Assembly (NCBI GenBank): GCA_034661055.1
Contig: JAYEKO010000085.1
Span: 1-25,163 of the forward strand
Direction of reading: 5' to 3'
From: Campylobacterota bacterium
GTDB taxonomy: Bacteria > Campylobacterota > Campylobacteria > Campylobacterales > Sulfurimonadaceae
DNA: 25,163 bases
Part shown: positions 135 to 25,052 of the stretch, piece by piece
How positions within the stretch are numbered: the first letter of the stretch is position 1
Layout: each line of letters starts with the position of its first letter
Notes under the pieces: model-generated
Databases searched by the model: none
The model's input: the letters and a program-made list of their open reading frames with translations, nothing else
Told to the model about the DNA's origin: nothing
Made by a program: the position numbers and the translations under genes

Positions 135-710
135 TTATGGCAGGGCATTTAAAGCCTCTTCATACTCATGAGGATAATTTAAGTTAGCAAAGGCTTTTTC
201 ATTCTCAAAGTTGACAAAATAGGTTTTAGACTCTTTAAGAAGTTTTCCTAAGCGGTGATTATCTTCTTGAAGCATACATGTAAATTTTGAGTGTAGAGAA
301 CGGTGATAAATACCGCACATGGGGTGCATTCCTTGTGCTGTTTTAGCAATAATTGCATCAAAATCAGGAGCATCACAATTAATGAGCTGTGTTATCTCAT
401 TTATGCCTACAAAGGGAGTGTCAACACTAAGTACAAAGACCTTCTCAGCACTTAGTCTATTAAAAAGAGCGACAAATCCTGCAGTTGGTGCAAACGTATC
501 AATACCTTTTGGATCTTCAATAATATTACATGTAAATGGTACTTTTTCACTACTCTTGGTTGAAATACTGACATATTTAAAAATCTTTTTCATACGTTCA
601 TATTGGTACTCTACAAGAGTATTGTAGTCTCCAAAGGGCAGGAGTGACTTATCGGTTCTCATACGTGAGCTTTTACCCCCCGCAAAGATAACGCAGTGCA
701 TATCAAACAT
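135..710 (-). CDS. mobA: Molybdenum cofactor guanylyltransferase
   Basis: N-terminal IFAGGKSSRMRTDKSLL motif, VLSVDTPFV, HPMCGIYH, FANLNYP; GGAG RBS upstream. Confidence 0.92.
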   Translation of the reverse strand: MFDMHCVIFAGGKSSRMRTDKSLLPFGDYNTLVEYQYERMKKIFKYVSISTKSSEKVPFTCNIIEDPKGIDTFAPTAGFVALFNRLSAEKVFVLSVDTPFVGINEITQLINCDAPDFDAIIAKTAQGMHPMCGIYHRSLHSKFTCMLQEDNHRLGKLLKESKTYFVNFENEKAFANLNYPHEYEEALNALP

Positions 711-719
711 ACTGTTCTC

Positions 720-1829
720 CTAGGACCATGAAATACATGTAATTTCTGCTTGAGAGCCCAAGCGCATTTTAGGGCCCCAAAAACCGATGCCACTATTAAC
801 GTAAATATGGCGATCTTTACCTAAGCTATGCAGACCTTTTAGATAAGGTTGTGCCAATTTTACTAAATAACCAAAGGGCCAAATCTGTCCACCATGAGTG
901 TGACCACTTAAAATTAGAGAAGGAGTGAATCCCTGCAAATAGTTTAGATATTTTGGCTGATGGACCAGAAGAATGGAGGGAGCATTTTTAGGAATATCTT
1001 GCATGGCAGCATTGATATCTGGCACATGATGTTCGGCCCGAAAACCAAAAATATCATAAACTCCGGCAATATAAAAGTTATCCACTTTAGCAGAGCTGTT
1101 TTCAAGTACATGTATATCTAAAGTTTTAAGATGCTCTATGGTGTCTTCAATGCCGTGAAAATACTCATGGTTGCCTACTACATAAAAGGTCCCAAAACGA
1201 CTTTTAAGGTTTTTAAGTTCATCTATTATCTCTGAAATGGTTGAGACGTGGGCATCACTCAAATCTCCAGTAATGGTGATGAGGTCAGGGCGAAGTGCAT
1301 TGATCTTTGCAACACTGCTTTTGACGAACTCTTTATCAATGAGTCCCCCAATATGCATATCGCTAATCTGTACAATAGTGTAGCTTTTTCCATTGAAACG
1401 GTTCTGTTTTACATTAATATGATTGATTACAGCTTCCTTGGAGCCTTCATATACACCTGCACCAAGATAAGCACTCCCTAGAGCTAAAAATCCTAGGTCG
1501 CTGCTGCGTTTAAAAAAAGCACGTTTTTCTGTTTTAAAGGGAGTGTTTCTTTGAATTACATGTAAAATTTCATAGAGAATAGTTCCAATAAAGATTACAA
1601 ACCCCACACCAATACTAAGCGATAGTAAAAAATAGAGCTCTTTTGGCGGATTAAAAGTGTAGCGACTAAGGAGATAACCGGCAATTCCCAGCATATTTAC
1701 ATGCAAAAAAAACTTGAGGTAGCCTTTAGTTTTAGAATTTACATGTAGATGTTTTACTACCCGAGTGTAACCTAAGTAGTGTACCATTGCAAAAAAGATA
1801 GTTACAATTAACGGAAATAATATATTCAT
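720..1829 (-). CDS. Membrane-anchored calcineurin-like metallophosphoesterase (YkuE/YaeI-like)
   Basis: Motifs SDMH, TGDL, GNHEYFHG, HQP, SGHTHGGQI, GIGFWGPKMRLG; N-terminal hydrophobic helices. Confidence 0.9.
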   Translation of the reverse strand: MNILFPLIVTIFFAMVHYLGYTRVVKHLHVNSKTKGYLKFFLHVNMLGIAGYLLSRYTFNPPKELYFLLSLSIGVGFVIFIGTILYEILHVIQRNTPFKTEKRAFFKRSSDLGFLALGSAYLGAGVYEGSKEAVINHINVKQNRFNGKSYTIVQISDMHIGGLIDKEFVKSSVAKINALRPDLITITGDLSDAHVSTISEIIDELKNLKSRFGTFYVVGNHEYFHGIEDTIEHLKTLDIHVLENSSAKVDNFYIAGVYDIFGFRAEHHVPDINAAMQDIPKNAPSILLVHQPKYLNYLQGFTPSLILSGHTHGGQIWPFGYLVKLAQPYLKGLHSLGKDRHIYVNSGIGFWGPKMRLGSQAEITCISWS

Positions 1830-1908
1830 TTAGTGATTGTAACTAAAGAAGTCTAATGGATTTTAAAAGCTTGATTATGAGAAATATCTTGTTAATGCAA
1901 GAAGTCTA

Positions 1909-2196
1909 TTGCATACTGGGCATAAACTATTTTTGAGCTCTAAAGTTATCATTAATCGTGGCGAGCGAGATGGTGTGAAAGTGGGCACAACATTTAATGT
2001 TGGAGAGGTTGAAGAGTTGGTTGATCCAGATACTGGCAAAAAGCTTCAAAAGCTTCTTGTAAGAAGAGGAGGTAGTTATGCTACCTACACATTGACACAT
2101 AGTGAAGCTCGAGAAGTTATGAAAGATGTGAGACTATATAACCGTACACGACTTAAAATGATGGAAAACGCTAATACAGTAGTTATAACAAAATAA
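1909..2196 (+). pseudogene. Probable gene remnant; first half resembles the C-terminal beta domain of CsgG/FlgT-like proteins
   Basis: VIINRGERDGVKVGTTFNV..ELVDPDTGK motif; weak TTG start without a clear RBS; too short for a full protein of that family. Confidence 0.45.
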
Positions 2197-2228
2197 CTAC
2201 TGCTTTTTTTAAATAGTATGGGAAAAAT

Positions 2229-3494
2229 TTAGTAGTTAGCAGGATTGGCGATAACTCCGGCAATAGCAGAAGCAGCCGCAACAGCTGAGTTTGCCAAATA
2301 AACTTTTGAACTACGGCTTCCCATACGTCCTACAAAGTTACGGTTCGTGGTAGAAACCGCTACTTCATTGTCACCTAAAATTCCCATGTATCCGCCAAGA
2401 CAGGCACCACATGTTGGGTTAGAGACCACGCCACCGGCATCAATAATAATGTCAATATAGCCTAAGTGACTCGCTTCACGTAAAATACGCTGTGTTCCCG
2501 GAGTGACGATGAGACGAACATCCTCATGAACACGTTTACCTTTAAGAATCTCAGCCGCAATTTTCAGGTCTGAAAGACGACCATTGGTACAACTTCCAAT
2601 AAATGCCTGATCAATTTTAATCTCATCTGAGACCGCTTGAGTCAGGCTGTGCCCATTACTCGGTAAGAATGGGTAAGCAATAACCGGCTCTAATGCCGCC
2701 ACATCAATTTCAAGAGTTTTCACATAAGTAGCATCATCATCTGAGTAGTGAATTTTAGGCTCACGAGCCAGTGGTTTGTCTTTTAAAAACTCTGCTGTAA
2801 TCTCATCATAAGCAACAATACCACTTTTTGCGCCCGCTTCAATCGCCATGTTACACATTGAGAAACGGTCATCCATTGTTAGATGCTCTATGGTGCTACC
2901 GGTAAACTCTAAGGTCTGATACAGCGCACCATCAACACCAATCATTCTAATAATCTCGAGAATAATATCTTTACCTGTAGTAAACTCACCCGGCTTTCCA
3001 AAGAGCACTACTTTAATAGATTCAGGAACCTTAAACCAGTTGCCGCCGCTAATCATAGCAAAGGCTAAGTCGGTTGAACCCATACCCGTAGAAAATGCTC
3101 CAAGTGCACCGTGAGTACAGGTGTGTGAATCAGCACCGATGATGACATCACCAGGAACCACTAAGCCCTTTTCAGGAAGTAGTGCATGTTCAATTCCCAT
3201 ATCTTTTTCATCAAAAAAGTTTTTTAAATTATGCTTTTTTGCAAAATCACGACTAATACGGGCTTGATTTGCCGAGGCTATATCTTTAGCTGGAATAAAG
3301 TGGTCAAGAACAATTGAAAAGCCATCCGGATTAGCAAGGCTCTCAGCTCCACTATCTTCAAATGCCTTAATTGAAATAGGTGTTGTAATATCGTTACCGA
3401 TAACCATATCGATATTTGAGCGAATAATCTCACCCGCAAACACATCGTGTCCGACGTGTTCAGAAAAGATTTTTTCCGTAATGGTTTGTCCCAT
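2229..3494 (-). CDS. leuC: 3-isopropylmalate dehydratase large subunit (short, homoaconitase-like LeuC type)
   Basis: GADSHTCTHGALG, IGSCTNGR, PTCGACLGG and STTNRNFVGRMG aconitase-family Fe-S motifs; AAGGA RBS. Confidence 0.92.
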   Translation of the reverse strand: MGQTITEKIFSEHVGHDVFAGEIIRSNIDMVIGNDITTPISIKAFEDSGAESLANPDGFSIVLDHFIPAKDIASANQARISRDFAKKHNLKNFFDEKDMGIEHALLPEKGLVVPGDVIIGADSHTCTHGALGAFSTGMGSTDLAFAMISGGNWFKVPESIKVVLFGKPGEFTTGKDIILEIIRMIGVDGALYQTLEFTGSTIEHLTMDDRFSMCNMAIEAGAKSGIVAYDEITAEFLKDKPLAREPKIHYSDDDATYVKTLEIDVAALEPVIAYPFLPSNGHSLTQAVSDEIKIDQAFIGSCTNGRLSDLKIAAEILKGKRVHEDVRLIVTPGTQRILREASHLGYIDIIIDAGGVVSNPTCGACLGGYMGILGDNEVAVSTTNRNFVGRMGSRSSKVYLANSAVAAASAIAGVIANPANY

Positions 3495-3796: not shown

Positions 3797-4456
3797 ATGA
3801 GACAGTATGAAACATATCGATGCAGTAAATGTGGTAATGAGATAGAGGTTCAAGAAGTGGGTGGGGGTGCTTTAGTTTGTTGTAATCAAGAGATGGAGTG
3901 TACTACTAAAAACCTTACTGCTGTTAACTTAATGAAAGCATTTGCCGGCGAGTCACAGGCACGAAATAAGTATGAGTTTTTTGCAGATGTAGCGATGCAA
4001 GAGGGCTTACATAGAATAGCAAGACATTTTCAAGAGGCAGCCAATAATGAAAAATATCACGCATTAGCAGAGTATAAAGCCTACAATAAACTTGTCAATA
4101 ATATTGAGTTAGACACGACAAAAAAGAATTTAACTTATGCTGCTGATGGTGAGCGTTATGAACATGAAGAGATGTATCCAAACTTTGCTGCTATTGCTAA
4201 AGAAGATGGCTTAGCAGATATTGCCAGACTTTTTAAAGCCATTGGAAAAGTAGAAGTTGAGCATGAAGCAGAATACTTAGCTCTAAAAGCAGCACTTGAT
4301 GCTGAAGGATTTTTTGACAGTGAAAACAGTGAAGAGTGGATATGTGAAGTGTGTGGTCATGTACACCGTGGTAAAAAGGCACCAAAGAGCTGTCCATTAT
4401 GTAAAGCTGACCAAGAGTATTTTAAGAAAAAATGCTCAGATGTGACTGCAGGGTAA
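3797..4456 (+). CDS. Desulforubrerythrin (desulforedoxin + rubrerythrin + rubredoxin-like domains; Campylobacter Rrc-like)
   Basis: N-terminal CSKCGN..CC, AFAGESQARNKY, EKYHA, GERYEHEEMYP, EVEH, C-terminal CEVCGH..CPLC; ATG 3797 chosen from RBS spacing (ORF track starts at GTG 3794). Confidence 0.9.
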   Translation: MRQYETYRCSKCGNEIEVQEVGGGALVCCNQEMECTTKNLTAVNLMKAFAGESQARNKYEFFADVAMQEGLHRIARHFQEAANNEKYHALAEYKAYNKLVNNIELDTTKKNLTYAADGERYEHEEMYPNFAAIAKEDGLADIARLFKAIGKVEVEHEAEYLALKAALDAEGFFDSENSEEWICEVCGHVHRGKKAPKSCPLCKADQEYFKKKCSDVTAG

Positions 4457-5351: not shown

Positions 5352-7067
5352 ATGAAAATGGTTATTTTTATGGCACTTTTGCTGGTGCTAAACTTACAAG
5401 CGACACAGCAGAGACCAACAGAGTTAGAACTTAAAAAGATGATAGGAAAAATGCTTATTGTAGGTTTTGATGGGCAGAGTGTTAAGCAAAACAGTGATAT
5501 ATACCGTTACATCAAAGAGTATGACCTTGGTGGTGTGATTTTGTTTGACAGAGATTACTATGCTAGAGATAAAACTAAAAATATTAAGAGTCCTAAGCAG
5601 CTGCAGGCGTTAACAGCACAGCTTCAGGCAATCTCACCAAGACCGCTGATTATCTCAGTTGATCAAGAAGGTGGAAAAGTGGCTCGTCTTAAAAGCAAAT
5701 ACGGCTTTAAAGCAACACCAAGTGCTTATGACATTGCCACTGAGCATAATGGAGCCTACGCTAAAAAGATGTACGATGAGTTAGCTAATGAATTACATGT
5801 AAATGGAATTACATGTAATTTTGCTCCAGTGGTTGATTTGGCTCTTAATCCAAAAAACAGAGTAATCTATCAGCTAAATCGTGCCTATTCAAAACAGGCT
5901 CCAAGTGTGGTGCGCTATGCTCAGATTTTTACGGATTCATTAAATGAACACGGTGTCATCAGTGTTCTTAAACACTTTCCTGGACACGGCTCTTCACTAG
6001 GTGATTCTCATGAAGGCTTTGTCGATGTCACTAAAACATGGAGTTCAAAAGAGCTAAAACCGTATGCGGAGCTTATTGAAAGAGATAAGGTCGATATGAT
6101 TATGACCGCCCATGTTTTCAATGCAAAACTCGACAAAAACTACCCAGCCACACTCTCACATAAGACCAATACTAAACTTTTAAGGGAGTATTTGGGTTAT
6201 GACGGTGTTATTGTTAGTGATGATTTGCAGATGAAAGCGATTGCCTCACAGTATGACCTTAAAGAGACCGTGACGTTGGCCATTAATTCAGGTGTAGATA
6301 TCTTACTTTTTGGTAACCAGTTGGCGCATCAAGATCTTCACAAGTTACTTGACGTCATTTATAAGCAAGTTAGAGCTAATAAAATTAAACTCTCTCGCAT
6401 TATAGAGTCCAATAAAAGAGTTGATACACTACTTAAAAAATTTTCTAAAATAGAGAGAATGGTTCAAAAGCCGATTGACTTTACTCCTAAGCGAGTAGCA
6501 ATGACAAAAGAGTACATCCGTACACATTACGATCTAAACGTGACTAATATTGTCATTGAGCCTAAAAGCATTGTTCTTCACTGGACTGCTATTATGGATG
6601 CAAATGAGTCGTATGCACGACTTAAAAGAGATACCCTCTTTACCGATAGAGAAGATATTGCAGCGGCAAGTCTTTTAAATGTCTCTGCTCATTTTTTAGT
6701 TGAGCGTGACGGCACCATTAATCAGCTTATGCCCGATAACTTCATGGCACGTCATGTAATTGGTCTGAATTACTCTAGTATTGGCGTAGAGAATGTGGGT
6801 GGGCAGAATAATGAGAACGAGGATCTGACTCAAGCTCAAGTTGATGCCAATGTGGAGTTGATACGACACCTTAAGCAGAAGTATCCTGACATTGAGTATC
6901 TAATTGGACATCATGAGTACCGTGCAATGGAGCAGACTTCGTTGTGGCTTGAAAAAGATGATGGGTACCGTACTGTTAAAAAAGATCCTGGTGAAAAGTT
7001 TATGAAAGCCGTTCGAAGCCGACTCAAAGACCTTGGATTTAAAAAAGCTCCAAAAGTGATGCATTGA
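5352..7067 (+). CDS. nagZ: Exported GH3 beta-N-acetylglucosaminidase (NagZ) fused to an Amidase_2 N-acetylmuramoyl-L-alanine amidase
   Basis: Signal peptide; GGVILF, VDQEGGKVARL, KHFPGHGSSLGDSH (NagZ signature), SDDLQM; C-terminal IVLHWTA, VSAHFLVERDG, ARHVIGLNYSSIGVEN, IGHHE, KDPG. Confidence 0.9.
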   Translation: MKMVIFMALLLVLNLQATQQRPTELELKKMIGKMLIVGFDGQSVKQNSDIYRYIKEYDLGGVILFDRDYYARDKTKNIKSPKQLQALTAQLQAISPRPLIISVDQEGGKVARLKSKYGFKATPSAYDIATEHNGAYAKKMYDELANELHVNGITCNFAPVVDLALNPKNRVIYQLNRAYSKQAPSVVRYAQIFTDSLNEHGVISVLKHFPGHGSSLGDSHEGFVDVTKTWSSKELKPYAELIERDKVDMIMTAHVFNAKLDKNYPATLSHKTNTKLLREYLGYDGVIVSDDLQMKAIASQYDLKETVTLAINSGVDILLFGNQLAHQDLHKLLDVIYKQVRANKIKLSRIIESNKRVDTLLKKFSKIERMVQKPIDFTPKRVAMTKEYIRTHYDLNVTNIVIEPKSIVLHWTAIMDANESYARLKRDTLFTDREDIAAASLLNVSAHFLVERDGTINQLMPDNFMARHVIGLNYSSIGVENVGGQNNENEDLTQAQVDANVELIRHLKQKYPDIEYLIGHHEYRAMEQTSLWLEKDDGYRTVKKDPGEKFMKAVRSRLKDLGFKKAPKVMH

Positions 7068-8554: not shown

Positions 8555-8557
8555 CTG

Positions 8558-9865: not shown

Positions 9866-10152
9866 TTTTATATTACCTTATTCTTTAATTTGCAATAGTA
9901 TATATTTACAATCTGAACAATTCATAAACATTTTTTATTTCTTCAATTGCCTTTATACTTTCATCTATCATCCTTTTTTAAAAATAATAGCTGATTATGA
10001 TTTTACAGAACTTTTATGACACTATCCAAGTACGAAGTCAAACATAGTTTGTCTATTAATGAAAACAAAGTAAAATGTAATTCATATTAGGGTTTTTAAA
10101 GTTGCCCATAAAGGTGTAATAGTCATAATGAAAAGCAAGATACTCCATAGAG

Positions 10153-11238
10153 ATGAGTAAGCTCTATATTGGTGTGATGTCTGGGACTAGTTTAGATGGT
10201 GTGGATGTGGTCTTATGTGAGATTGATGAATCTTCTTGTAGGCTGCTATTATCTTATGAGTACGGTTTTGATCAAGTGTTAAAAAAAGAGATTTTACATG
10301 TAATTTCACATGAGAGCTCTTTAGCACAAACAGGAAGGCTAAATCATCGCTTGGGTCTTCTCTTTGCTAATTCTGTGAACTCACTGCTAAAGCACCATAA
10401 TATTGACAGAAACAGTATTAGAGCAATAGGCTTGCATGGTCAGACACTTTGGCATGAATCCTCAGGGAATTACCCGTTCTCAATGCAGTTGGGTGATGCT
10501 AATGTAGTGAGCGTAGAGACGGGCATTGATGTGGTCTGTGATTTTCGTAGTAAAGATGTCGCTTTTGGTGGACAAGGGGCCCCTTTTGCTCCCGCCTTTC
10601 ATGAATTCTTATTTCAAGATTTAAAAAATACATGTATATTAAATATTGGTGGTATGGCTAACATTACAGTGTTGGGAGAAACACTTTTGGGGTATGACTC
10701 AGGTCCAGGAAATGTGCTTATGGATGCATGGATAGCAGAGCATAAAAATCTCCCTTATGATGCAGACGGAGCGTGGGCACAGAGTGGTGTATTTAATGTT
10801 GAATTATTAAAACAGTTTTTAGATGAGCCGTTTTTTATGCAGAGCGCTCCAAAAAGTACGGGACGTGAGATATTTAATCTTCAGTGGCTTCATAAGAGAC
10901 TTTATAGCAGCAATCTCAGCAGTAAAGATGTGCAGGCAACACTGCTTGAACTTACCGTTAGAACTATTGCAGATGAGGTAAAAAAGTTTGATGTTACGCA
11001 GCTTTTAGTGTGTGGTGGTGGTGTAAAGAACCACTTTTTAATGCAGCGATTAAATGAAGAGCTTTTAGATGTCAAAGTCACCTCGACAGACATTTACGGT
11101 GTCAGTAGTGAGTTTATGGAAGCCATGGCATTTGCTTGGTTAGCACATAAACGTCTAAATAGAGAGAGTGTGAATTTAAAAGAGGTGACAGGCGCATCTC
11201 AAAATGCTATTTTAGGAGGAGTTTATGCAGCTCATTAA
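10153..11238 (+). CDS. anmK: Anhydro-N-acetylmuramic acid kinase
   Basis: GVMSGTSLDGVD, HGQTLWH, DFRSKDVAFGGQGAP, LNIGGMANIT, DSGPGN, PKSTGRE, EAMAFAWLA. Confidence 0.95.
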   Translation: MSKLYIGVMSGTSLDGVDVVLCEIDESSCRLLLSYEYGFDQVLKKEILHVISHESSLAQTGRLNHRLGLLFANSVNSLLKHHNIDRNSIRAIGLHGQTLWHESSGNYPFSMQLGDANVVSVETGIDVVCDFRSKDVAFGGQGAPFAPAFHEFLFQDLKNTCILNIGGMANITVLGETLLGYDSGPGNVLMDAWIAEHKNLPYDADGAWAQSGVFNVELLKQFLDEPFFMQSAPKSTGREIFNLQWLHKRLYSSNLSSKDVQATLLELTVRTIADEVKKFDVTQLLVCGGGVKNHFLMQRLNEELLDVKVTSTDIYGVSSEFMEAMAFAWLAHKRLNRESVNLKEVTGASQNAILGGVYAAH

Positions 11239-12175
11239 TTATTATGTTGCTCGAACTAAATGGAAGGACTGGACCCTTGAACTAGCTTCTGCAGATGCTA
11301 GCTTTAGGCGTTATTTCCGGATTTATAAGGGAGATGAGAGTGTTATTTTAATGGACTCTTCCCTTGAAAAGGAGTCTTTAAAACCTTTTATTGATGTTAC
11401 TAATAGACTACTACATGTAAATGTAAAAGCGCCTCAAATCTTAGATATAAATATAGAAGATGGTTTTTTGATTATCGAAGACTTTGGAAATGCTCACTAT
11501 CTCAATGTTTTAGATGATACGAATTATGAAAAACTCTATTCGCAGGCAATGGCAGAAATTGTTACAATGCAGGATGCTAGTGCAGAGAATCTACCCTTAT
11601 ATGATAGAGATTTTTTACGTTTTGAGATGGATTTAATGCCACAGTGGTACTTAAAAGAGTATTTACATGTAAATTTGAGTGCTGCTCAAGAAGAGATGAT
11701 TAACACAAGCCTAGATGAGATCATAACGGAAGTGGAATTACAACCCCAGGGGTTATTTGTCCACCGTGATTATCATTCACGAAATATTATGATTCCTAGA
11801 GAGGGAGAGGTTGGGGTTATTGATTATCAGGATGCTATGAGTGGTGCGGTTACGTATGACTTGGTATCACTGTTAAAAGACTGTTATGTTGAGTATGATG
11901 CTCAAGAGGTAGAGCGTTTAGCTCTAAAGTTTCGAGATATGAAAAATTTACATGTAGATGATGCAACGTTCATTAGGTGGTTCGATTTTATGGGGTTGCA
12001 GCGACACATTAAAGTACTTGGTATTTTCTGTCGGCTCTACCTGCGTGATGGAAAAGATGGGTACTTAAATGATCTGCCGTTAACGCTCAAATATGTCATA
12101 CAGACTGCCAATAAATATGAGAAGACACGAAATTTGGCTAAACTTCTTAGTAGTATTAAACTGCCTAAGACATAA
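11225..12175 (+). CDS. amgK: Anomeric MurNAc/GlcNAc kinase (APH fold)
   Basis: ADASFRRYFR, HRDYHSRNIM, IDYQDA, YDLVSLLKDCY, GLQRHIKVLGIFCRL..RDGK; AGGAGG RBS; context with anmK and murU. Confidence 0.88.
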   Translation: MQLINYYVARTKWKDWTLELASADASFRRYFRIYKGDESVILMDSSLEKESLKPFIDVTNRLLHVNVKAPQILDINIEDGFLIIEDFGNAHYLNVLDDTNYEKLYSQAMAEIVTMQDASAENLPLYDRDFLRFEMDLMPQWYLKEYLHVNLSAAQEEMINTSLDEIITEVELQPQGLFVHRDYHSRNIMIPREGEVGVIDYQDAMSGAVTYDLVSLLKDCYVEYDAQEVERLALKFRDMKNLHVDDATFIRWFDFMGLQRHIKVLGIFCRLYLRDGKDGYLNDLPLTLKYVIQTANKYEKTRNLAKLLSSIKLPKT

Positions 12176-12184
12176 GGGGAATGT

Positions 12185-13075: not shown

Positions 13076-13734
13076 TGATGAAAGCGATGATATTAGCAGC
13101 AGGTAGAGGTGAGCGAATGCGACCACTAACCGATGCGCTTCCTAAACCACTATTAGAAGTCCAAGGTAAACCGCTTATTGTATATCATATTGAAAAGCTT
13201 GCTAAAAATGGTTTTAAAGAGATTGTCATTAATCTTGCTCATTTAGGTTACAAAATTCCTGACGTTTTAGGCAATGGTTCTAAATGGAATGTAGAAATTA
13301 CTTACTCAGATGAACAAGATGAGGGAGCACTAGAGAGTGCCGGTGGCATCATTAAAGCTCTGCCTCTTTTAGGTAAAGAGTTTTTAGTAGTAAATGGCGA
13401 TGTCTGGTGTGATTATGAGTTTGATGCAGGTTTTAAATTAAAACAGCGATTAGCACACCTTATTTTAGTTTCTAACCCAGAGCATAATACCAAAGGAGAC
13501 TTTACCCTTAATGATGGTGTAGTGGCTAATGAGGGTGACAATAAGGTAACGTTTAGCGGTATTGGTTACTACCGTGCAGAATTTTTCAAACACTGCTCTT
13601 ACGGCAAAGCAGCATTAGCTCCGCTACTTAGAGAAGCGATGACTAACAGACGTGTTAGTGGTGAGTTATATGCTGGAACATGGCGTGATATTGGAACTCC
13701 TGAGCGTTTAAGGGAAGCTAATCAATCTTTGTAG
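13075..13734 (+). CDS. murU: N-acetylmuramate alpha-1-phosphate uridylyltransferase
   Basis: KAMILAAGRGERMRPLT..PKPLL, LESAGGI, VVNGDVW, NPEHN..GDF, TFSGIG, WRDIGTPERL; TAATG overlap with the upstream gene. Confidence 0.88.
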   Translation: MMKAMILAAGRGERMRPLTDALPKPLLEVQGKPLIVYHIEKLAKNGFKEIVINLAHLGYKIPDVLGNGSKWNVEITYSDEQDEGALESAGGIIKALPLLGKEFLVVNGDVWCDYEFDAGFKLKQRLAHLILVSNPEHNTKGDFTLNDGVVANEGDNKVTFSGIGYYRAEFFKHCSYGKAALAPLLREAMTNRRVSGELYAGTWRDIGTPERLREANQSL

Positions 13735-13754
13735 CAGTCTCTTTTTTTATAAGT

Positions 13755-14624
13755 TTAGGTGCGTACAATAGATGCTTTTAGTGTGTGGGTATCACCTGGT
13801 TCAATAGTGCGTGCATCATCAAAGGCGTTAGCACTCTCAATGCAGACCATAGTCTTATAGCTGTCATTTTCCATGGCACTCATACGAGCACATTTTTCTA
13901 TCCATGGGTTCCAGACTACAGCAGAATTAGAGCCATTAGTGCTAATAGTGATTTTTTTACGTTTGTCCATAAGATTAATAGGCTTATTGACGTTTTGATA
14001 GACACGATCTATCTCGCTATTGAAGGTAACAGCTCCCTTTTGAATTATATTCTCTCCTGTAAGCGCATCAAAATAGGGTTTGTTTTGAAGACCATTTACA
14101 TGTATATTTGAAATATGAGAAATATTAAAGTATGTGTGTAAGGCTTGAGTAATACTAAAGGCTTCTGTGTCAAGGTTTTTAGTGGTGAGTTCAAGTGAGA
14201 GTTCTCTACCAATAGTAAGGGTGTAGGTTAATTCAAATTGGTAGGGCCATAAGGTTAAAGACTCTTCAGAACTAACAAGAAGGAGAGTTAATTTGGAGGT
14301 GTTCTGAAGGTCTTTAGAGTCTATAAGTTTCCACATAAAGGTTCTTGCAAAACCGTGCTGGGGCATATCAGCATCGGTTTTGTGCATTCCAAACCATGGC
14401 CAGCATAGGGGAATGCCACCACGAATTGATTCACCTAAAGTGAAATTTGAAGCCTTGCTTACCCACAATAAGGGTGTTTCACCATGACGTTCATAGTGAA
14501 AGAGATGTGCACCTTGAAGTGCAATCTTAGCTTTGGCTATACTGTTGACAACTTCTATGTACTCAAAACCGTCGGGGAACGTTTTAAAAGAAATCAAACC
14601 TTTTCCTTTAATTTTTGAGTGCAA
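13755..14624 (-). CDS. D-hexose-6-phosphate mutarotase / aldose 1-epimerase family (YeaD-like)
   Basis: IALQGAHL, IRGGIPLCWPWFG, QHGFAR, ALHTYF, IDRVY, VVWNPW, MVCIES; TTG start uncertain. Confidence 0.88.
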   Translation of the reverse strand: MHSKIKGKGLISFKTFPDGFEYIEVVNSIAKAKIALQGAHLFHYERHGETPLLWVSKASNFTLGESIRGGIPLCWPWFGMHKTDADMPQHGFARTFMWKLIDSKDLQNTSKLTLLLVSSEESLTLWPYQFELTYTLTIGRELSLELTTKNLDTEAFSITQALHTYFNISHISNIHVNGLQNKPYFDALTGENIIQKGAVTFNSEIDRVYQNVNKPINLMDKRKKITISTNGSNSAVVWNPWIEKCARMSAMENDSYKTMVCIESANAFDDARTIEPGDTHTLKASIVRT

Positions 14625-14743
14625 AGAAATCTTCTTAATAATTTATTGATTAGTAATAATTATTAGATGTAGAAGTATAACTTATGAAAGCTGACGTTTA
14701 AATTAAAAAAATAATTAAATAAAAACGTCAAAGAAAGCATGGC

Positions 14744-16010: not shown

Positions 16011-16835
16011 TTAAACTCCTACGCTTTGAAGGTACTTTGCTACACCATCTTCATCATTAGTATGTGGCAGTACAATGTCGGCATATTTTTTTAGTTTATC
16101 GTGAGCATTGCTAACAGCAACAGAAGTTCCACTAAGTTGAAACATGCCAAGGTCGTTAAGGTTGTCACCAAAGACAGTAAAGTCTGTAAGATTACGACCA
16201 AGATAGTCACTGACAATGTTTAGACCGTGTGCTTTGTCTGCGTCAGCATGAAGAAGGGTTAAAAAATAGCATCCCATATACGCTTCTGGTGCTAAAATAT
16301 ATTTTAGGTTATTCTTAAAAATTGAGTGCAACTTATCTCTTAGATGCTTAAGGATTGACTCATCCCCCATATAGACCAGTTTGAAGTTATCACTCATGGT
16401 TCTAATCTCTTTTCTCTCTTGTAGATTGTCATCTTTAGTGTAACGTTTTAAGAGATTGTGTTGATACTCATTGCGCTGTGCAGGGTAGAGAAATGCTTCA
16501 TTAAGGTTTTGATCTTCTAATGCAAGAACAAAAGGATAAATGTTTAATTTTGCCCCTTCATCAATAATGGCATCGCCAAGGTCTTGAGTAATGAATTTTG
16601 TATCAATAATTTTTTTATCTTCAGAAACGATGAGAGATCCATCGAGTAGTATCATAGGTGCATTTACATGTAAATTCTTTAAAAACTGTTCGGTCTTTTT
16701 AAAGCTTCGTGCTGTGGCAACAGAGAGAATATGATTGTCTGTCTTAACGTTCCAAATTTTTTGTGTAAAAGGGCTAATACTTAGGTCTGTTCTTAAAAAT
16801 GTGTGGTCAAGGTCGGTAATATAAATGTTATTCAT
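16011..16835 (-). CDS. Cof-type HAD-IIB hydrolase (sugar-phosphate phosphatase family)
   Basis: Motif I DLDHT, motif II ATARS, conserved K (ADKAHG), motif IV GDNLND, NAH, NDEDGVA. Confidence 0.9.
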   Translation of the reverse strand: MNNIYITDLDHTFLRTDLSISPFTQKIWNVKTDNHILSVATARSFKKTEQFLKNLHVNAPMILLDGSLIVSEDKKIIDTKFITQDLGDAIIDEGAKLNIYPFVLALEDQNLNEAFLYPAQRNEYQHNLLKRYTKDDNLQERKEIRTMSDNFKLVYMGDESILKHLRDKLHSIFKNNLKYILAPEAYMGCYFLTLLHADADKAHGLNIVSDYLGRNLTDFTVFGDNLNDLGMFQLSGTSVAVSNAHDKLKKYADIVLPHTNDEDGVAKYLQSVGV

Positions 16836-16887: not shown

Positions 16888-17625
16888 ATGATTAAATATT
16901 ATTTTACATGTATTTTATTGGTAACTTCTTTGATGGCTGAAGTGCAGACATCATACTATAAAAGCGGTGGTGTAAGATTGCAGCAAGAGCTTGAAAATGG
17001 AAAAGCAGAAGGCTTGACACGTGGATTTTATGAGGATGGAACACTTTTTTTTGAGACAGAATATGTAAACGGTATGGCATCAGGAATTAGTAGAGAATAC
17101 AATAAAAATGGTGAACTTGCTACGGTTAAAGAGTATCTCTCTGGTAAAAAAACTGCTGAGGTCTCTTTTAAAAATGGTAAAAAAAATGGTTGGTTTAGGC
17201 AATACAATTTAAATGGCACTGTTAAGCTTGAAAAAGAGTACAGAAATAATCTTTTAAACGGAATAACTCAGAGCTACTACGAAAATGGAAATTTACATGT
17301 AAAAATGAATATGAAGTCTGGAGTTTTACATGGAATCAGTGAGGAGTATTTTGACAATAAGGTTTTAAAAACTGAGACATCATATAAAAATGGCTTAGTT
17401 GATGGTATTGTAAAACACTTCTCAGAAGATGGAAAATTAGAGGCACAGCTTTTTTATGTAAAAGATAAAAAAAATGGCACCGCACTTTTTTATGATAAGA
17501 GTGATAAGATTCAACATGAAATTATCTTTAGTGATGATATGGTGGTAAAAGGCTATGCATATGGTAAAACAGGCGAGAAAAAGATTATGACCTACAAAGA
17601 GGTAAAACAGATAGGTTTTAAGTAG
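16888..17625 (+). CDS. Exported MORN-variant repeat protein (YwqK-like repeats)
   Basis: Signal peptide; repeated YY.NG.L..E..YKNG..G units; GGAG RBS and TGCTATACT extended -10 at 16858-16866. Confidence 0.8.
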   Translation: MIKYYFTCILLVTSLMAEVQTSYYKSGGVRLQQELENGKAEGLTRGFYEDGTLFFETEYVNGMASGISREYNKNGELATVKEYLSGKKTAEVSFKNGKKNGWFRQYNLNGTVKLEKEYRNNLLNGITQSYYENGNLHVKMNMKSGVLHGISEEYFDNKVLKTETSYKNGLVDGIVKHFSEDGKLEAQLFYVKDKKNGTALFYDKSDKIQHEIIFSDDMVVKGYAYGKTGEKKIMTYKEVKQIGFK

Positions 17626-17933: not shown

Positions 17934-18023
17934 TGGTGGACAGGGTGGGATTCGAACCCACGGAGGTATGACCCTCGCTGGTTTTCAAGACCAGTGCATT
18001 CAACCAGGCTCTGCCACCTGTCC
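17934..18023 (-). tRNA. tRNA-Ser(UGA)
   Basis: GGACAGG...CTGGT CT TGA AA ACCAG, long variable arm, GGTTCGAATCC, encoded CCA. Confidence 0.96.
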
Positions 18024-18048
18024 ACTGAATACGAAGTATTTATAAAGT

Positions 18049-18122
18049 TGGAGGCGCCACCCAGATTTGAACTGGGGATAGAAGCTTTGCAGGCTCCGGC
18101 CTTACCACTTGGCGATGGCGCC
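18049..18122 (-). tRNA. tRNA-Cys(GCA)
   Basis: GGCGCCA...GGAGC CT GCA AA GCTTC, AGTTCAAATCT, TCCA end. Confidence 0.96.
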
Positions 18123-18146
18123 ACCAGTTGTCAACTTTAATAATTA

Positions 18147-18233
18147 TGGTGCCCGGAGCCGGACTTGAACCGGCACAGTGTTACCACCGAGGGATTTTAA
18201 GTCCCTTGCGTCTACCAATTTCGCCATCCGGGC
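18147..18233 (-). tRNA. tRNA-Leu(UAA)
   Basis: GCCCGGA...AGGGA CT TAA AA TCCCT, variable arm, GGTTCAAGTCC, ACCA end. Confidence 0.96.
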
Positions 18234-18287
18234 ATTCATAGAAATACCTCAGTTAAAACATAAAAAAATGTCTTAACTGAGATATAA

Positions 18288-18362
<75 letters not shown>

Positions 18363-20208: not shown

Positions 20209-21984
20209 TTAGCCCTTGTGATTGAACTCTGGCACAATTTTTTTAAGTTGTGCTACTTTATTTTTACATGTAAATAACTTATAAATTTCTTCTTGTAGCT
20301 CTTTTCTCGGGTAGTGACTACTTTTTGCTATCATAATGGAGCTGAATTTTGTTTTTTCATCACTTGGGTCTATGAGTAGCTCTTCATAGAGTTTCTCTCC
20401 TGGACGTAAGCCACAAAATTCTATCTCAATTTCATCTTCTTTTCCATAAAGTGAAATCATCTGTGAAGCTAAATCAACAATTTTAACAGGTTCTCCCATA
20501 TCAAGAATAAAAAGTTCACCGCCTTTAGCGATAGAGGCTGCCTGTAAAACCAGTTGACATGCTTCAGGAATAAGCATAAAGTAACGTGTCATTCTCTCAT
20601 CTGTTACGGTTATTGGGCCACCATTTTCAATTTGAGATTTAAACTTAGGAATAACACTTCCGCTTGAGCCTAATACATTTCCAAAACGAACACAGACAAT
20701 TTCACTTTTTTTGGTATCAATATTTTGTGCATAGAGTTCAACAACACGTTTTGTAGTTCCCATTACATTTGTTGGACGAACAGCTTTGTCAGTTGAGATG
20801 ATTACTACTTTAGATAGGCTATATTTAACAGCAAGGTCAATGACATTTTTACTTCCAAGGATATTGTTTTCAATGGCAATATCAATATTGGCTTCACAGA
20901 TAGGGACATGCTTGTACGCAGCGGCATGGATAACTATGTCGATTGAGGTTGATCTAAAAAGTTCTTCGAGTTTGAGATAATCAGTTACAGAGATAAGCTT
21001 AAGTTTTGCATCTGGCAATTTCTCTCCAATTTGGTAGAGGTTGTATTCACTATTATCAAGAAGAGTTAGTGACGATGCTCCAAACTTTTGACACTGTAAG
21101 GCAATTTCACTTCCAATGCTTCCACCTGCACCAGTTATAAGCACTGATTTATTTTGAATAAAAGACTCCACAAGAGTATTATCAAGATCTTTGGGGTGAC
21201 GAGCAAGTAAATCTTCGATAGATAAATCTTGAAGTTTTTCATACTGTTCACCAAGAAGTTTTACTTTTTTTATCTCTTTAATGCCATAGTTTGAGAGAGT
21301 GTCATAAAGTGATTTAAGCGCAGATGTTGGTAGGTCTGCAGTAATGATGACTGCTTGAATATCATAGTTGCCTATTGTCTCTTGCAGTTGCATGTGAGAA
21401 TAGACTTTAAGATTATTTATATAAGTACCTTTTGCACTTTGTTCCTCATAATCTGCGAGGCAAACAGCTACGGGATAATATGGAATTTCATTATTGAGAG
21501 CACTTTTTATAATTGAAGATGTTTTAGGGTTGACACCGATAATTAAGGTCGGTTTGTAAGGATTAATATTTTGCTCAATTTTCATGCGTTTTGAGATACG
21601 TAGTATTCCTATAAAGACAAGAGAGAGAATCAGGTCAATAATGATTACACTACGAGGAAAAGGTTCATAATACTCATGAAATGAAATAAAAATAAGAAAA
21701 AAGATACTGTAAGCAAAAATATGAGCTTTAAAAATATTTTTTGATTCACTGAGTCCAAAAAAACGCCATATGCTAAGATAGATATTGTAGCGTAGAAAAA
21801 AGAGTAGTTTTAGAGAAAAAAGTGTAAAAAAGACAATCCAAAAGTTTGTTAGAAATTCTGAAGGTATTTGAAAATTAAAACGTAAAGCATAGGCACTATA
21901 GAGCGTAAGCATAGAGATGAGAAAATCTAAGCTTAGAAAGAAGATAATACGCTTTGCGTTGCTAGGTTTTAATATTCTAGTCAT
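20209..21984 (-). CDS. pglF: Membrane-bound UDP-GlcNAc 4,6-dehydratase (PglF/CapD/WbpM family)
   Basis: N-terminal TM helices; ITGAGGSIGSE, HAAAYKHVP, STDKAVRPTNVMGTTKR, VRFGNVLGSSGSVIP, GLRPGEKLYEEL. Confidence 0.88.
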   Translation of the reverse strand: MTRILKPSNAKRIIFFLSLDFLISMLTLYSAYALRFNFQIPSEFLTNFWIVFFTLFSLKLLFFLRYNIYLSIWRFFGLSESKNIFKAHIFAYSIFFLIFISFHEYYEPFPRSVIIIDLILSLVFIGILRISKRMKIEQNINPYKPTLIIGVNPKTSSIIKSALNNEIPYYPVAVCLADYEEQSAKGTYINNLKVYSHMQLQETIGNYDIQAVIITADLPTSALKSLYDTLSNYGIKEIKKVKLLGEQYEKLQDLSIEDLLARHPKDLDNTLVESFIQNKSVLITGAGGSIGSEIALQCQKFGASSLTLLDNSEYNLYQIGEKLPDAKLKLISVTDYLKLEELFRSTSIDIVIHAAAYKHVPICEANIDIAIENNILGSKNVIDLAVKYSLSKVVIISTDKAVRPTNVMGTTKRVVELYAQNIDTKKSEIVCVRFGNVLGSSGSVIPKFKSQIENGGPITVTDERMTRYFMLIPEACQLVLQAASIAKGGELFILDMGEPVKIVDLASQMISLYGKEDEIEIEFCGLRPGEKLYEELLIDPSDEKTKFSSIMIAKSSHYPRKELQEEIYKLFTCKNKVAQLKKIVPEFNHKG

Positions 21985-23087
21985 TGCAGAGCTTTTTTAA
22001 TTAACGAACAGATATGAAGAACATCATCATGACTCATTTGTGTTCCACTTGGTAAACAGAGTCCCTGTTTAAAAAGATTTTCACTCACGCCAGTACTTAC
22101 ATGTAAAGAGTCTTTAAATAAGGGTTGCAGATGCATAGGCTTCCATAAGAGGCGAGCTTCTATGTTATGCTTTTGCAATTCTTGGATTACATGTAAAGGA
22201 TCTGTTTTGCTCAATGTTAAAGTTGTAAGCCAGCGATTTCCCTTAGTATTTGGAAGCTCAGGCATAAACGTAATCTCTTTTACATCAAAAAGCTCTTGCT
22301 TGTACCATGAAAATATTTGCCTACATTGCATAACTCGTTCATCAAGTACTTCCATTTGAGCTACACCGATAGCAGCTAAAATATTGCTCATACGATAATT
22401 GTACCCATACTCTGTATGTTCATAATAAGGCATATCATCTTTTGCCTGTGTAGCGTAAAAAGATGCTTTGCGAATCCACTCTTTGTTGTGTGAAACTAAA
22501 ATACCACCACCTGATGTACTTAATATTTTATTCCCATTAAAAGAGTAAACTCCAAAATCACCAAAAGTACCACTTTGCTGATTTTTACATGTAGCACCCA
22601 TACTTTCTGCTGCATCTTCTATGAGGTAGATGCCGTGAGCCTTACATGTAAGGGTTATAGCTTCAATATCTGCGCACTGTCCATAGAGGTGTGTAAGAAT
22701 AAGTGCCTTAGGTTTTTTGGGAGCTTTTTTTATCGCCTCTTCAAGAATTAAAGGGTCTAGGTTCCAGCTTTTTTCATCACTATCTATAAAAATAGGGGAA
22801 GCATTTTGATATAAAACAGCACTTATTGAACCGATAAAAGTAAAACTAGAGGCTAAAACATAATCACCTCTACTAATCCCAAGAACTCGCAAGGCAAGAT
22901 GAATTGCGGAGGTGGCATTAATGGTAGCTAAGGCATAAGGTGATGAAGTATAATTTTGCACAATTTCTTCAAAGCGATTTACAAAGGGTCCGAGTGGGGC
23001 GATATAGTTACTCTCAAATGCTTGCGCAATATACTCTTGTTCTTTACCAGACATATGAGGAGGTGAGAGAAAAATTCTATTATCCAT
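21981..23087 (-). CDS. pglE: DegT/DnrJ/EryC1/StrS sugar aminotransferase (PglE-like)
   Basis: RIFLSPPHMSG, IEDAAESMG, SFNGNKILSTSGGG (PLP lysine), GYNYRMSN, WKPMHLQP, GLCLPSG; overlaps the pglF start. Confidence 0.85.
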   Translation of the reverse strand: MDNRIFLSPPHMSGKEQEYIAQAFESNYIAPLGPFVNRFEEIVQNYTSSPYALATINATSAIHLALRVLGISRGDYVLASSFTFIGSISAVLYQNASPIFIDSDEKSWNLDPLILEEAIKKAPKKPKALILTHLYGQCADIEAITLTCKAHGIYLIEDAAESMGATCKNQQSGTFGDFGVYSFNGNKILSTSGGGILVSHNKEWIRKASFYATQAKDDMPYYEHTEYGYNYRMSNILAAIGVAQMEVLDERVMQCRQIFSWYKQELFDVKEITFMPELPNTKGNRWLTTLTLSKTDPLHVIQELQKHNIEARLLWKPMHLQPLFKDSLHVSTGVSENLFKQGLCLPSGTQMSHDDVLHICSLIKKALQ

Positions 23088-24084: not shown

Positions 24085-24329
24085 ACTTTACTTCCATAAA
24101 ACATCTCATTTATCTCCTGGACTTCACTATCAAAATCATCTGGTATATTTATTTTTCCTTCTAATTGTCCAAATTTTCTTATCTTTGTATTCTCTTCATA
24201 AGGCACTAGCATTGCAACTTTTTTATGTTTTTTACCATACTCAATCACAAATTTTTCTCCATAGTTTTGTACTTGTTCTAAGATAGATGATAAGTCTGAT
24301 TTAAATTGTCCCACTTGTACTGACTGCAT
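24081..24329 (-). CDS. Phd/YefM-like antitoxin partner of VapC
   Basis: QVGQFKSDLSSILEQV, VAMLVP, RKFGQLEGKINIPDDFD; 4-nt overlap with vapC; AAGGAG RBS. Confidence 0.85.
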   Translation of the reverse strand: MQSVQVGQFKSDLSSILEQVQNYGEKFVIEYGKKHKKVAMLVPYEENTKIRKFGQLEGKINIPDDFDSEVQEINEMFYGSKV

Positions 24330-24354
24330 TAGATAACTCCTTGATATTTGATAA

Positions 24355-24384
24355 ATTATATCTATATTTATGACAAGTTGTCAA
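24355..24384 (-). promoter_or_regulatory. Consensus sigma70 promoter (TTGACA-18 bp-TATAAT) with overlapping palindromic operator TGACAA-G-TTGTCA
   Basis: -35 at 24379-24384, -10 at 24355-24360, palindrome at 24371-24383. Confidence 0.75.
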
Positions 24385-24421
24385 GTTGTACTGGAGTGAA
24401 GATTTAATCTTATTCCACTGT

Positions 24422-24823
24422 TTAAATATCTCTTATAATTTTTGCAGGTATTCCAAATGCGATTACATTGTCTGGGATATCATCTATCACTAAACTATGC
24501 GCACCAATGATGGAATTTTTTCCAACTGTTACACCTGGAAGTAGCGTTGAATGACTTCCTATCTTAGAGTTATTTTTTAAGACAATTTCACCTTTTTTAT
24601 CATCAATCGTAGAAACGGAGTAAATAGAACAGTGAGAACCTATCTGCACATTATCTTCAATAATTACACCATATTGTGCATTTATATAACTAAAAGCTCC
24701 AATATCTGTAGCAAAACCTAATTTTAATCCATCTATATTTTGAACAACCCAATTGTATTTTGTAGGTTTTCCCTCGATAATTTCTGGATATTTCCAGTTA
24801 CTAAAACGATGTTTATTTTCCAT
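24422..24823 (-). CDS. Hexapeptide-repeat (left-handed beta-helix) acyltransferase
   Basis: IEDNVQIGSHCSI, IGSHSTLLPGVTVGKNSIIGAHSLV..DIP....FGIPAKII. Confidence 0.85.
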   Translation of the reverse strand: MENKHRFSNWKYPEIIEGKPTKYNWVVQNIDGLKLGFATDIGAFSYINAQYGVIIEDNVQIGSHCSIYSVSTIDDKKGEIVLKNNSKIGSHSTLLPGVTVGKNSIIGAHSLVIDDIPDNVIAFGIPAKIIRDI

Positions 24824-25052
24824 CTATTTTCTCTCCAAAAACTTTTCACAAAATAGAGTCGATGTTATCAGTTCAATATCTCTAGAGTAAAAATCCTTAT
24901 CATTTGAAATTATCAAATCACACTGCTCTTTTTGGGCTAATACAACCTGTAGAGTATTTTCTAAATCTTTATAATTTTTATCTTCTCTCATAAGCTTACA
25001 TGTAGAATTGCATCGATAAAATATTTGCATCGATAAATACCTTTTTATACAT
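24824..25052 (-). pseudogene. Disrupted PIN-domain toxin (frameshift plus probable internal deletion)
   Basis: ATG at 25052 gives the PIN N-terminus MYKKVFIDANI, then stops at 24996; the PIN C-terminus (DLENTLQ..AQKEQCDLIISNDKDF) is in another frame; about 76 codons in total versus about 130-140 for a PIN protein. Confidence 0.78.

Follow-up and report, generated by a model that had tools for sequence, protein, structure and literature searches.

A highly iterated DNA palindrome shared by sulfur-oxidising Campylobacterales and its possible use as a tag on self DNA

The locus described here raises the question of why one short palindrome, TACATGTA, should recur throughout a run of ordinary and unrelated genes. 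The stretch analysed (the window) is the whole of contig JAYEKO010000085.1 (C85; 25,163 nucleotides) from the assembly of a Campylobacterota bacterium of the family Sulfurimonadaceae (GenBank: GCA_034661055.1; the source genome, G000; 1,908,352 bp in 92 contigs, 36.2% G+C, 83% complete), which relatives of its AnmK protein place among Sulfurimonas-like Campylobacterales. The window contains 25 exact copies of TACATGTA (positions 275 to 24997) and 14 of the longer TTACATGTAA, against means of 0.60 (maximum 3) and 0.02, respectively, in 100 dinucleotide-preserving shuffles. These counts, together with four 14-bp palindromes at 5807, 11661, 16662 and 22640, agree with an initial annotation of the window made from its letters only. 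That annotation had placed 24 of the 25 copies in coding sequence, and a recount reduced this to 23 in open reading frames (ORFs) with a minimum length of 100 aa; of the other two, one (3506) lies between genes and one (24997) falls outside every listed ORF. The host genes include MobA, LeuC, NagZ/AmpD, AnmK, AmgK, MurU, NagP, IlvD and sugar-modifying enzymes. At 0.89 copies per kb, the density on this contig is about twice the genome average of 0.47/kb.

The enrichment extends well beyond the window. With 899 copies, TACATGTA is the commonest 8-mer of the 1.9-Mb source genome, where Markov models of orders 1 to 3 predict 32-48, and all 143 10-kb bins were occupied (mean 4.72 copies, variance 4.15). 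Gaps of at least 8 kb numbered 9 against 13 expected under an exponential distribution, which the long gaps fit, and by bin counts and gap lengths within the 92 contigs the spacing looks Poisson-like rather than regular. The flanking T and A were present at 899 of 1103 ACATGT sites (81%), and the logo extends to ATTTACATGTAAAT, with G and C each at or below 5% at positions -3 and -2. The 24 one-mismatch variants of TACATGTA summed to 755 against 987 expected, and those at the two outer positions to 72 against 148; being below expectation, they form no halo of near-copies around the word. CATG itself was under-represented (observed/expected 0.71). TACATGTA is thus a real DNA-level iterated palindrome, the core of TTACATGTAA, with ATTTACATGTAAAT as the genus consensus, and the comparison with HIP1 (highly iterated palindrome 1) or uptake sequences made in the initial annotation holds as far as the iterated-palindrome kind is concerned.

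Within the 1723 called ORFs of the source genome, 744 of the 899 copies were located, 505 of them in phase 1 (read as L/I-H-V), 192 in phase 2 (T-C) and 47 in phase 0. Density in non-coding DNA (0.88/kb) was twice that in coding DNA (0.43/kb) and was alike in tandem, convergent and divergent spacers (0.93-1.08/kb); along genes the profile was flat. The enrichment survived codon-preserving shuffling: in 1721 ORFs holding 742 copies, 30 shuffles of synonymous codons with the protein kept gave 128.9 ± 9.8 copies and 30 permutations of whole codons gave 32.6 ± 5.9. In the proteome, the tripeptide LHV was observed 411 times against 79 expected (5.2x) and TCK 126 times against 20 (6.4x), and TA precedes 504 of the 619 H-V pairs encoded by CATGTA. 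The DNA-level word has therefore shifted protein sequences, with a several-fold excess of Leu-His-Val and Thr-Cys-Lys.

The origin of the copies was followed in orthologues, for which called ORFs were paired as reciprocal best hits and sites were mapped codon by codon. Against G153, a non-carrier with 0 copies in 400 kb, 91 sites of the source genome were mapped, of which 3 were gapped and none was common to both genomes. Amino-acid identity at the motif codons was 0.39-0.50 against a gene median of 65%, and the G153 peptides opposite LHV were diverse (IKV, LNI, IHL, KKV and others). Few gaps and low identity at the motif codons indicate that the copies are substitutions at variable positions and not insertions. 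Gapped sites were similarly scarce across the comparisons made (3/91, 5/91, 5/65, 0/85, 0/43, 2/71 and 4/88), and at 0-5 per 43-91 aligned orthologue sites a dispersed repeat of the REP (repetitive extragenic palindromic) or MITE (miniature inverted-repeat transposable element) type was ruled out, as was membership of a repeat family. The view of the initial annotation that the word is neither a classical operator nor a REP element is supported.

Copies are also retained. Between G000 and its congener G002, whose median amino-acid identity is 75.6%, 28 sites were common, out of 85 in G000 and 43 in G002 (33-65%), compared with 7-13% of phase-matched control 8-mers; at identical amino acids, the word was kept at 14 of 22 and 14 of 14 phase-1 sites, compared with 14% of controls. 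Sites of G000 that are private with respect to the G002 orthologue differed on average at about 3.9 of 8 bases, at a high overall divergence. Between G082 and G231, two carriers with 80.6% nucleotide identity in aligned codons, 50 of 69 and 50 of 84 sites were common (60-72%, controls 23%), 47 of 49 sites with identical amino acids were kept (control 8-mers 29-42%), and each genome had private sites. In the comparison of G000 with G082, of another genus, the distribution of mismatches was bimodal, with 12 sites showing none, 1 showing one, 6 showing two and the bulk three to five. The first 400 kb of G082 gave merely 13 reciprocal best hits with G153, too few to compare a carrier directly with a non-carrier inside the genus. 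TACATGTA has thus been made by point substitution wherever protein constraint allows, and has been held against change even at synonymous positions.

The distribution of the word was surveyed by counting decamers (TTACATGTAA), with the reversed word as control, which never exceeded 10 in any of the 301 genomes of the family Sulfurimonadaceae. At least 100 decamers were present in 32 of these genomes, 20-99 in 17 and fewer than 20 in 252. The 32 comprise 6/6 genomes of the source genus (213-468 decamers), 4/4 of genus g3 (872-1146), 4/4 of g5 (772-1182), 11/12 of g37, 1/1 of g19 and 6/154 of the large genus g2 (322-425). Two closed genomes of g37 differ strongly, with 367 and 48 decamers. The word is missing from the majority of genera in the family. 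In a sample of the order (251 genomes from 13 families), a second family, f20, was positive in 8 of 10 genomes (49-1312 decamers), and no hyper-abundance was seen in 11 other Campylobacterales families, with a maximum of 6 decamers among 224 genomes. Abundance is graded among species, from about 20 to about 1300 decamers. The outer flanks form dialects, ATT-core-AAT in the source genus and C(C/T)T-core-A(R)G in g3, g5, g37, f20-g56 and G082, the logos of the other genera being based on 11-18 sites each. The word is therefore common to several genera of two families of sulfur-oxidising Campylobacterales, with lineage-specific outer flanks.

Viral contigs with the 14-mer had a single copy in 68 of 80 loci among the matches listed, which is compatible with chance and uninformative on phages of these hosts. 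One 16.3-kb viral contig of 51% G+C (IMGVR_UViG_3300025301_001295) has five copies of TACATGTA, three of them TTACATGTAA, in a non-coding stretch of about 250 bp (3800-4060). This array lies near the contig end and resembles a local operator, or a set of iterons, from an unrelated phage, not a genome-wide signal.

TACATGTA is absent from recently acquired DNA. The closed genome G082 has two low-GC stretches, of 39 and 36 kb, that are free of the motif; the first (G082:C1:152008-191152) has 0 copies and carries two integrases, a type I restriction-modification (R-M) system, a resolvase, ParA, PIN and a replicase, and the second carries a type II secretion system, an S-layer gene and an O-antigen locus. 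Likewise, 0 copies were found in 23.6 kb around the R-M genes of G193 and G231. The word could thus serve to mark resident as opposed to acquired DNA in carrier genomes.

Close pairs of copies (at most 46 bp apart) numbered 29 in the source genome, and 16 of them were intergenic, though only about 9% of the genome is non-coding. The recurrent spacings were 11-12 bp and 17 bp, the latter corresponding to two 14-mers with 3 nt between them. All 16 intergenic pairs fold into hairpins of 8-22 bp, with energies of -6.9 to -30.8 kcal/mol compared with -1.2 to -8.6 for shuffles, and several fill very short convergent or tandem gaps.

The initial annotation had suggested that a methyltransferase acting on the CATG or ACATGT core might drive accumulation of the motif, or mark self DNA for uptake, recombination or nucleoid organisation. 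G000 encodes an orphan D12-class enzyme of 326 aa with a DPPY motif, whose gene lies between xseA and sppA and adjoins no nuclease gene; its relatives at 53-54% identity bear the source name "Modification methylase NlaIII", and from these names alone CATG specificity is assumed. Among strong carriers, 23 of 36 have a full-length NlaIII-like homologue; in intermediate genomes the figure is 9 of 12, and in non-carriers 8 of 51. Because related genomes do not count as separate observations, common descent may explain part of this association. A tree of 44 D12 sequences has two carrier-only clades, one of the source genus (100/100) and one of f20-g56, g5 and g3 (95/93), as well as a short-branched group (97/95) that mixes carriers and non-carriers of four families. 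A single clade of all carrier methyltransferases, seen in a quick tree, was unsupported in the careful one. Within each carrier lineage the gene neighbourhood is stable (housekeeping genes, no nuclease gene); ORFs of about 210 aa beside the D12 gene are secreted-like in the source genus and, by reading of the sequence, RecO-like in g3 and g5, and none is nuclease-like.

Other methyltransferases of G000 are one C5 enzyme with a small neighbour (203 aa) and one type IIG-like ORF of 908 aa. Type IIG-like enzymes usually read asymmetric sites. The C5 enzyme and its neighbour were rejected as partners of the word, their close homologues being found solely in the non-carriers G013 and G011. Neither a PF01555 gene nor Vsr was found in G000 (83% complete), and very-short-patch repair was set aside on the absence of Vsr and on the failure of the C5 enzyme to track the word.

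Some strong carriers lack the enzyme. The six strongest carriers of genus g2 have no D12 homologue, and the closed carriers G082 and G193 (340 and 397 decamers) have no match to PF02086, PF01555 or PF00145. In G231, the methyltransferase families scanned gave nothing beyond two C5 genes and one PF02384 match, the latter interrupted by a stop, so that no scanned family is intact in all three. MutL_C (PF08676) was found in 0 of 62 genomes by a search that was positive in 11 of 14 reference genomes; the methyl-directed repair ratchet proposed for HIP1 therefore cannot apply. Because enzyme-less carriers exist, the sites of G082 and G231 stay conserved and MutL is missing from all 62 genomes, methylation does not appear to be the engine of the word and the NlaIII-like enzyme appears dispensable. 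The link to a CATG methyltransferase thus persists as an association with an orphan NlaIII-like enzyme that includes two carrier-only clades, and the role of driver given to it in the initial annotation is not supported. Together, these data show that a sequence-specific process creates and holds the word independently of gene features and mismatch repair, and in some lineages also without a recognisable methyltransferase.

A second word was encountered in a non-carrier. In G153, GCATCT/AGATGC occurs 1081 times in ORFs, compared with 417 ± 18 after synonymous shuffling and 293 ± 15 after codon permutation, at about 1 per 370 bp and with no strand skew. It is elevated solely in G153, G163, G165 and G133 (about 1690-2700/Mb, compared with at most about 1180/Mb in the other 68 of 72 genomes), and among 58 genomes searched a distant (30-37%) D12 homologue is present solely in the same four. 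The gene for this homologue adjoins an aminotransferase gene at three of the four loci (G163, G153 and G165), and a tandem D12 pair is present at two of the four. An asymmetric site would need such a tandem pair of methyltransferases. The four genomes may form one lineage and hence represent a single evolutionary event. Separately, TACATGTA is absent from G153 where codon shuffles predict 6-7 copies, and ACATGT and GCATGC stand at 0.53 and 0.12 of Markov expectation, respectively, so that CATG-core palindromes are avoided in this genome.

As to what the word is for, the explanation ranked first is that TACATGTA serves as an uptake-sequence-like tag on self DNA for natural transformation or recombination, a tentative reading to which we give not quite an even chance. 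It was preferred because of the uptake-sequence-like traits of the word, the CtsM precedent and recent work on HIP1 in transformation. In the accessible parts of the sources, to which all statements on cited papers here and below are limited, Campylobacter jejuni is described as importing only CtsM-methylated (RAATTY) DNA (PMC10046745), and HIP1 as raising transformation efficiency in Synechococcus (bioRxiv 10.1101/2024.09.10.611283) and as correlating in abundance with protein families of type IV secretion systems (PMC13756078). In the proposed mechanism, a sequence-specific reader would recognise the double-stranded word, probably as a dimer because the site is a palindrome of 10-14 bp; tagged self DNA would be favoured in uptake or recombination, and new copies would spread by molecular drive. 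The CATG core would probably be adenine-methylated by the orphan NlaIII-like enzymes in most carriers, as a companion and not as the engine.

Several observations weigh against such a tag. Carriers and non-carriers alike possess ComEC (62 of 62 panel genomes) and secretins (71 of 72), which makes transformation plausible everywhere and gives no pointer to a reader; of the correlation with methyltransferases or competence genes that the initial annotation had suggested surveying, the D12 enzyme follows the word in part, and ComEC and secretins do not discriminate. No reader protein for the word was found, no proteome-wide search having been made. TACATGTA is a perfect palindrome, and known uptake sequences are not palindromes. 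The uptake signal sequences (USS) of Pasteurellaceae are probably less sharp than TACATGTA, with its near-absence of enriched one-mismatch variants. Between genera, G000 and G082 have 12 of 86 sites in common compared with 7% of controls, so that most sites must be young or turning over, and in syntenic intergenic DNA of G082 and G231 0 of 4 motif sites were conserved compared with 30% of controls, a sample too small to weigh. Finally, the enzyme association (23/36 versus 8/51) and the pairing of a second word with a second methyltransferase point to a mechanism centred on methylation. Two further observations on secretins may reflect kinship: in genus g2, strong carriers mostly have 3-5 secretin matches (one genome has 1) compared with 1-3 in non-carriers, and a secretin type of about 590 aa occurs mainly in carriers without the D12 methyltransferase.

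An account on the lines of the methyl-directed repair ratchet that Elhai proposed for HIP1 (PMC4390886) would have an orphan adenine methyltransferase mark the word, and methylation-dependent repair bias, protection or CtsM-like uptake keep its copies, the enzyme-less carriers having lost the enzyme recently or using an unrecognised one. This is unlikely in our judgement, even with the enzyme frequent in strong (23/36) and intermediate (9/12) carriers relative to non-carriers (8/51), with its carrier-only clades and stable nuclease-free surroundings, and with the independent parallel of GCATCT and a distant D12 enzyme in the same four genomes, for which Elhai (2015) reports the same rule among alternate HIPs (PMC4390886). 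G082 and G193 are carriers without PF02086, PF01555 and PF00145, and G231 has two C5 genes and a broken PF02384; yet the sites of G082 and G231 are strongly conserved, with private sites in both. The lack of MutL (0/62) and of Vsr (0/1, G000) leaves neither methyl-directed mismatch repair nor very-short-patch repair to act, an enzyme reading plain CATG cannot explain a word of 8-10 bp when CATG is at 0.71 of expectation, and the enzyme also occurs in eight non-carriers, with an association that may partly be shared descent. We regard as similarly improbable that the word is a chromosome-architecture site, bound by a plentiful dimeric protein of the nucleoid-associated or chromosome-organising kind and maintained because chromosome structure is under selection. 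A perfect palindrome of 10-14 bp would suit a dimer; its core is an uninterrupted alternation of pyrimidine and purine, contains TA and CA/TG steps, is bordered by A/T tracts and, judged from the sequence, is expected to bend easily. Each of the 143 10-kb bins has at least one site, conservation of sites exceeds that of controls, and spacers repeatedly contain tandem 14-mers at a distance of 17 bp; for HIP1, selection and a part in nucleoid organisation are advocated by Xu et al. (2018; PMC5861425). Against such a role, the spacing looks Poisson-like rather than regular (bin mean 4.72, variance 4.15; 9 versus 13 gaps of at least 8 kb), no candidate protein was found for it, and most genera of the family are without the word.

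The word could also be functionless, the by-product of a lineage-specific replication or repair bias that converts near-copies without any dedicated reader, a possibility raised by Elhai (2015) for alternate HIPs (PMC4390886). Depletion of one-mismatch variants (755 versus 987; outer positions 72 versus 148), an abundance graded from 20 to 1300 decamers and the placing of copies where constraint is weakest are all as such a bias would have them. It is nevertheless decidedly improbable, as neither short-patch nor mismatch repair of a known type is present (Vsr 0/1, MutL 0/62), private sites of G000 are about 3.9 of 8 bases away from G002 and so are not simple one-step conversions, though divergence is high, and a bias that specifies 10-14 bases would still need a sequence-specific protein. 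Least credible, with a probability near zero, is a signal at the coding or RNA level, such as a favoured peptide (LHV, TC-K), codon pair or RNA motif. It would account for the over-represented LHV and TCK, but it is refuted as the main cause by the doubled density outside genes, by copies in all three phases and on both strands, by the TA that precedes most CATGTA-encoded H-V pairs, and by the diversity of the orthologous peptides in the non-carrier.

The uptake or recombination tag may be part of something wider, namely a family-wide code for self DNA in these mismatch-repair-less sulfur oxidisers, in which each lineage would have a word and a matched orphan D12 enzyme (TTACATGTAA or asymmetric GCATCT) read in a transformation or recombination pathway. 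This broader proposal is doubtful. If true, one word across two families would define communities of gene exchange in sulfidic habitats, and the existence of lineages that have the word but not the enzyme would mean that reader and marker are separable.

The function and origin of iterated palindromes such as HIP1 have been open for about 30 years, with evidence so far from one phylum. TACATGTA makes the question testable, as it has a different core, occurs in a lineage without MutL and has carriers with and without the companion methyltransferase; further handles are the graded abundance among close relatives (about 20 to 1300), several closed carrier genomes and a sister lineage with another word and methyltransferase. 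Methylation, repair bias and DNA uptake can thereby each be tested cleanly as a cause, by comparison and by genetics. The shift imposed on proteins by a DNA-level word also matters for annotation, codon models and the detection of foreign DNA in these abundant environmental bacteria.

The copies in the window are listed below. Besides these, positions 5352-16009 form a peptidoglycan-recycling cluster (AnmK, AmgK, a YpfJ-type metallopeptidase, MurU and a NagP-like transporter), in which a 571-aa ORF matches both the NagZ and the AmpD models, a possible fusion. Four consecutive tRNA genes (Rfam RF00005, 58-67 bits) lie at 17937-18362(-), with no TACATGTA inside.

Table 1. Copies of the palindrome in the window, with the ORF in which each lies and its reading phase
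Element	Position	Strand	Context
TACATGTA	275..282	.	MobA-like ORF 135-710(-), phase 2 (reads T-C)
TTACATGTAA	526..535	.	MobA-like ORF 135-710(-), phase 2
TACATGTA	734..741	.	ORF 720-1829(-), phase 2
TACATGTA	1107..1114	.	ORF 720-1829(-), phase 1 (I-H-V)
TTACATGTAA	1556..1565	.	ORF 720-1829(-), phase 1 (L-H-V)
TACATGTA	1740..1747	.	ORF 720-1829(-), phase 1 (L-H-V)
TTACATGTAA	3505..3514	.	Intergenic; 11 bases from end coordinate 3494 of LeuC-like ORF 2229-3494(-)
TTACATGTAA	5793..5802	.	NagZ/AmpD-like ORF 5352-7067(+), phase 1; first of close pair 16 bp apart
AATTACATGTAATT, 14-bp palindrome	5807..5820	.	Second of close pair with 5793..5802; phase 2
TTACATGTAA	7538..7547	.	Sodium/solute symporter ORF 7064-8554(+), phase 1
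TTACATGTAA	10294..10303	.	AnmK ORF 10153-11238(+), phase 1
TACATGTA	10629..10636	.	AnmK ORF 10153-11238(+), phase 2
TACATGTA	11412..11419	.	AmgK-like ORF 11225-12175(+), phase 1
ATTTACATGTAAAT, full 14-bp genus consensus	11661..11674	.	AmgK-like ORF 11225-12175(+), phase 1
TACATGTA	11949..11956	.	AmgK-like ORF 11225-12175(+), phase 1
TACATGTA	14097..14104	.	ORF 13755-14624(-), phase 1
ATTTACATGTAAAT, 14-bp consensus	16662..16675	.	HAD-hydrolase ORF 16011-16835(-), phase 1
TACATGTA	16905..16912	.	ORF 16888-17625(+), phase 2
TTACATGTAA	17293..17302	.	ORF 16888-17625(+), phase 1
TTACATGTAA	20264..20273	.	Sugar dehydratase-like ORF 20209-21984(-), phase 2
TTACATGTAA	22097..22106	.	LegC-like aminotransferase ORF 21981-23087(-), phase 1
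TTACATGTAA	22187..22196	.	LegC-like aminotransferase ORF 21981-23087(-), phase 1
TACATGTA	22586..22593	.	LegC-like aminotransferase ORF 21981-23087(-), phase 2
CCTTACATGTAAGG, 14-bp palindrome	22640..22653	.	C-rich flank, the usual dialect of other carrier genera
TACATGTA	24997..25004	.	In no listed ORF of at least 100 aa

The initial annotation knew of no description of this motif in the lineage, and none was found in the literature searched, which did not cover subscription journals. Among the matches listed, no paper containing TACATGTA or the decamer concerned a bacterial genomic motif by its title, and nothing on the word appeared in the titles and abstracts of Sulfurimonas literature on palindromes, methylation or uptake sequences. 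For S. denitrificans, the accessible part of a study of 5-methylcytosine gives CGCG, CCNGG, GATC and CCGG.

Four known systems offer points of comparison. In Escherichia coli, the excess of CCWGG under Dcm and Vsr is a case in which repair bias at a methyltransferase target raises a palindrome and lowers its near-copies. The present word differs in that G000 has no Vsr, its C5 enzyme does not track the word and the effect is far larger. With the USS of Pasteurellaceae and the DNA uptake sequences (DUS) of Neisseriaceae, TACATGTA shares a density of about 1 per kb, a core with weaker flanks that vary as lineage dialects, copies that sit where protein constraint is weak and measurably alter the proteome, inverted pairs as intergenic hairpins, absence from acquired islands and the presence of competence genes. 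Unlike them, it is a perfect palindrome and has no known receptor, and the same decamer is common to two families.

The CtsM/RAATTY system of C. jejuni (PMC10046745) belongs to the same order and has a palindromic site as well; its adenine is methylated by an orphan enzyme, as is probable for the word in most carriers, and with CtsM the mark discriminates self from foreign DNA at uptake. RAATTY is short and degenerate, whereas the word here spans 8-14 bp, and some carriers have no candidate methyltransferase. We know of no report of RAATTY being hyper-iterated.

The comparison with HIP1 (GCGATCGC; PMC4390886, PMC5861425) has differences on several counts. TACATGTA is AT-rich with a CATG core, is found in a different phylum, has an NlaIII-type D12-class adenine methyltransferase as its companion and resides in genomes without MutL (0/62); among its one-mismatch variants, those altered at the first or last base are the least frequent instead of the most frequent, and its distribution, judged by bin counts and gap lengths, looks Poisson-like. 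The resemblances are nonetheless extensive: both are exact 8-bp palindromes at about 20-30 times expectation and about 1 per 1-2 kb, lie in genes as well as spacers, are written into proteins, are conserved above controls and are patchy among relatives, and both enclose a smaller methyltransferase target, with conserved orphan methyltransferases in most carriers and with exceptions.

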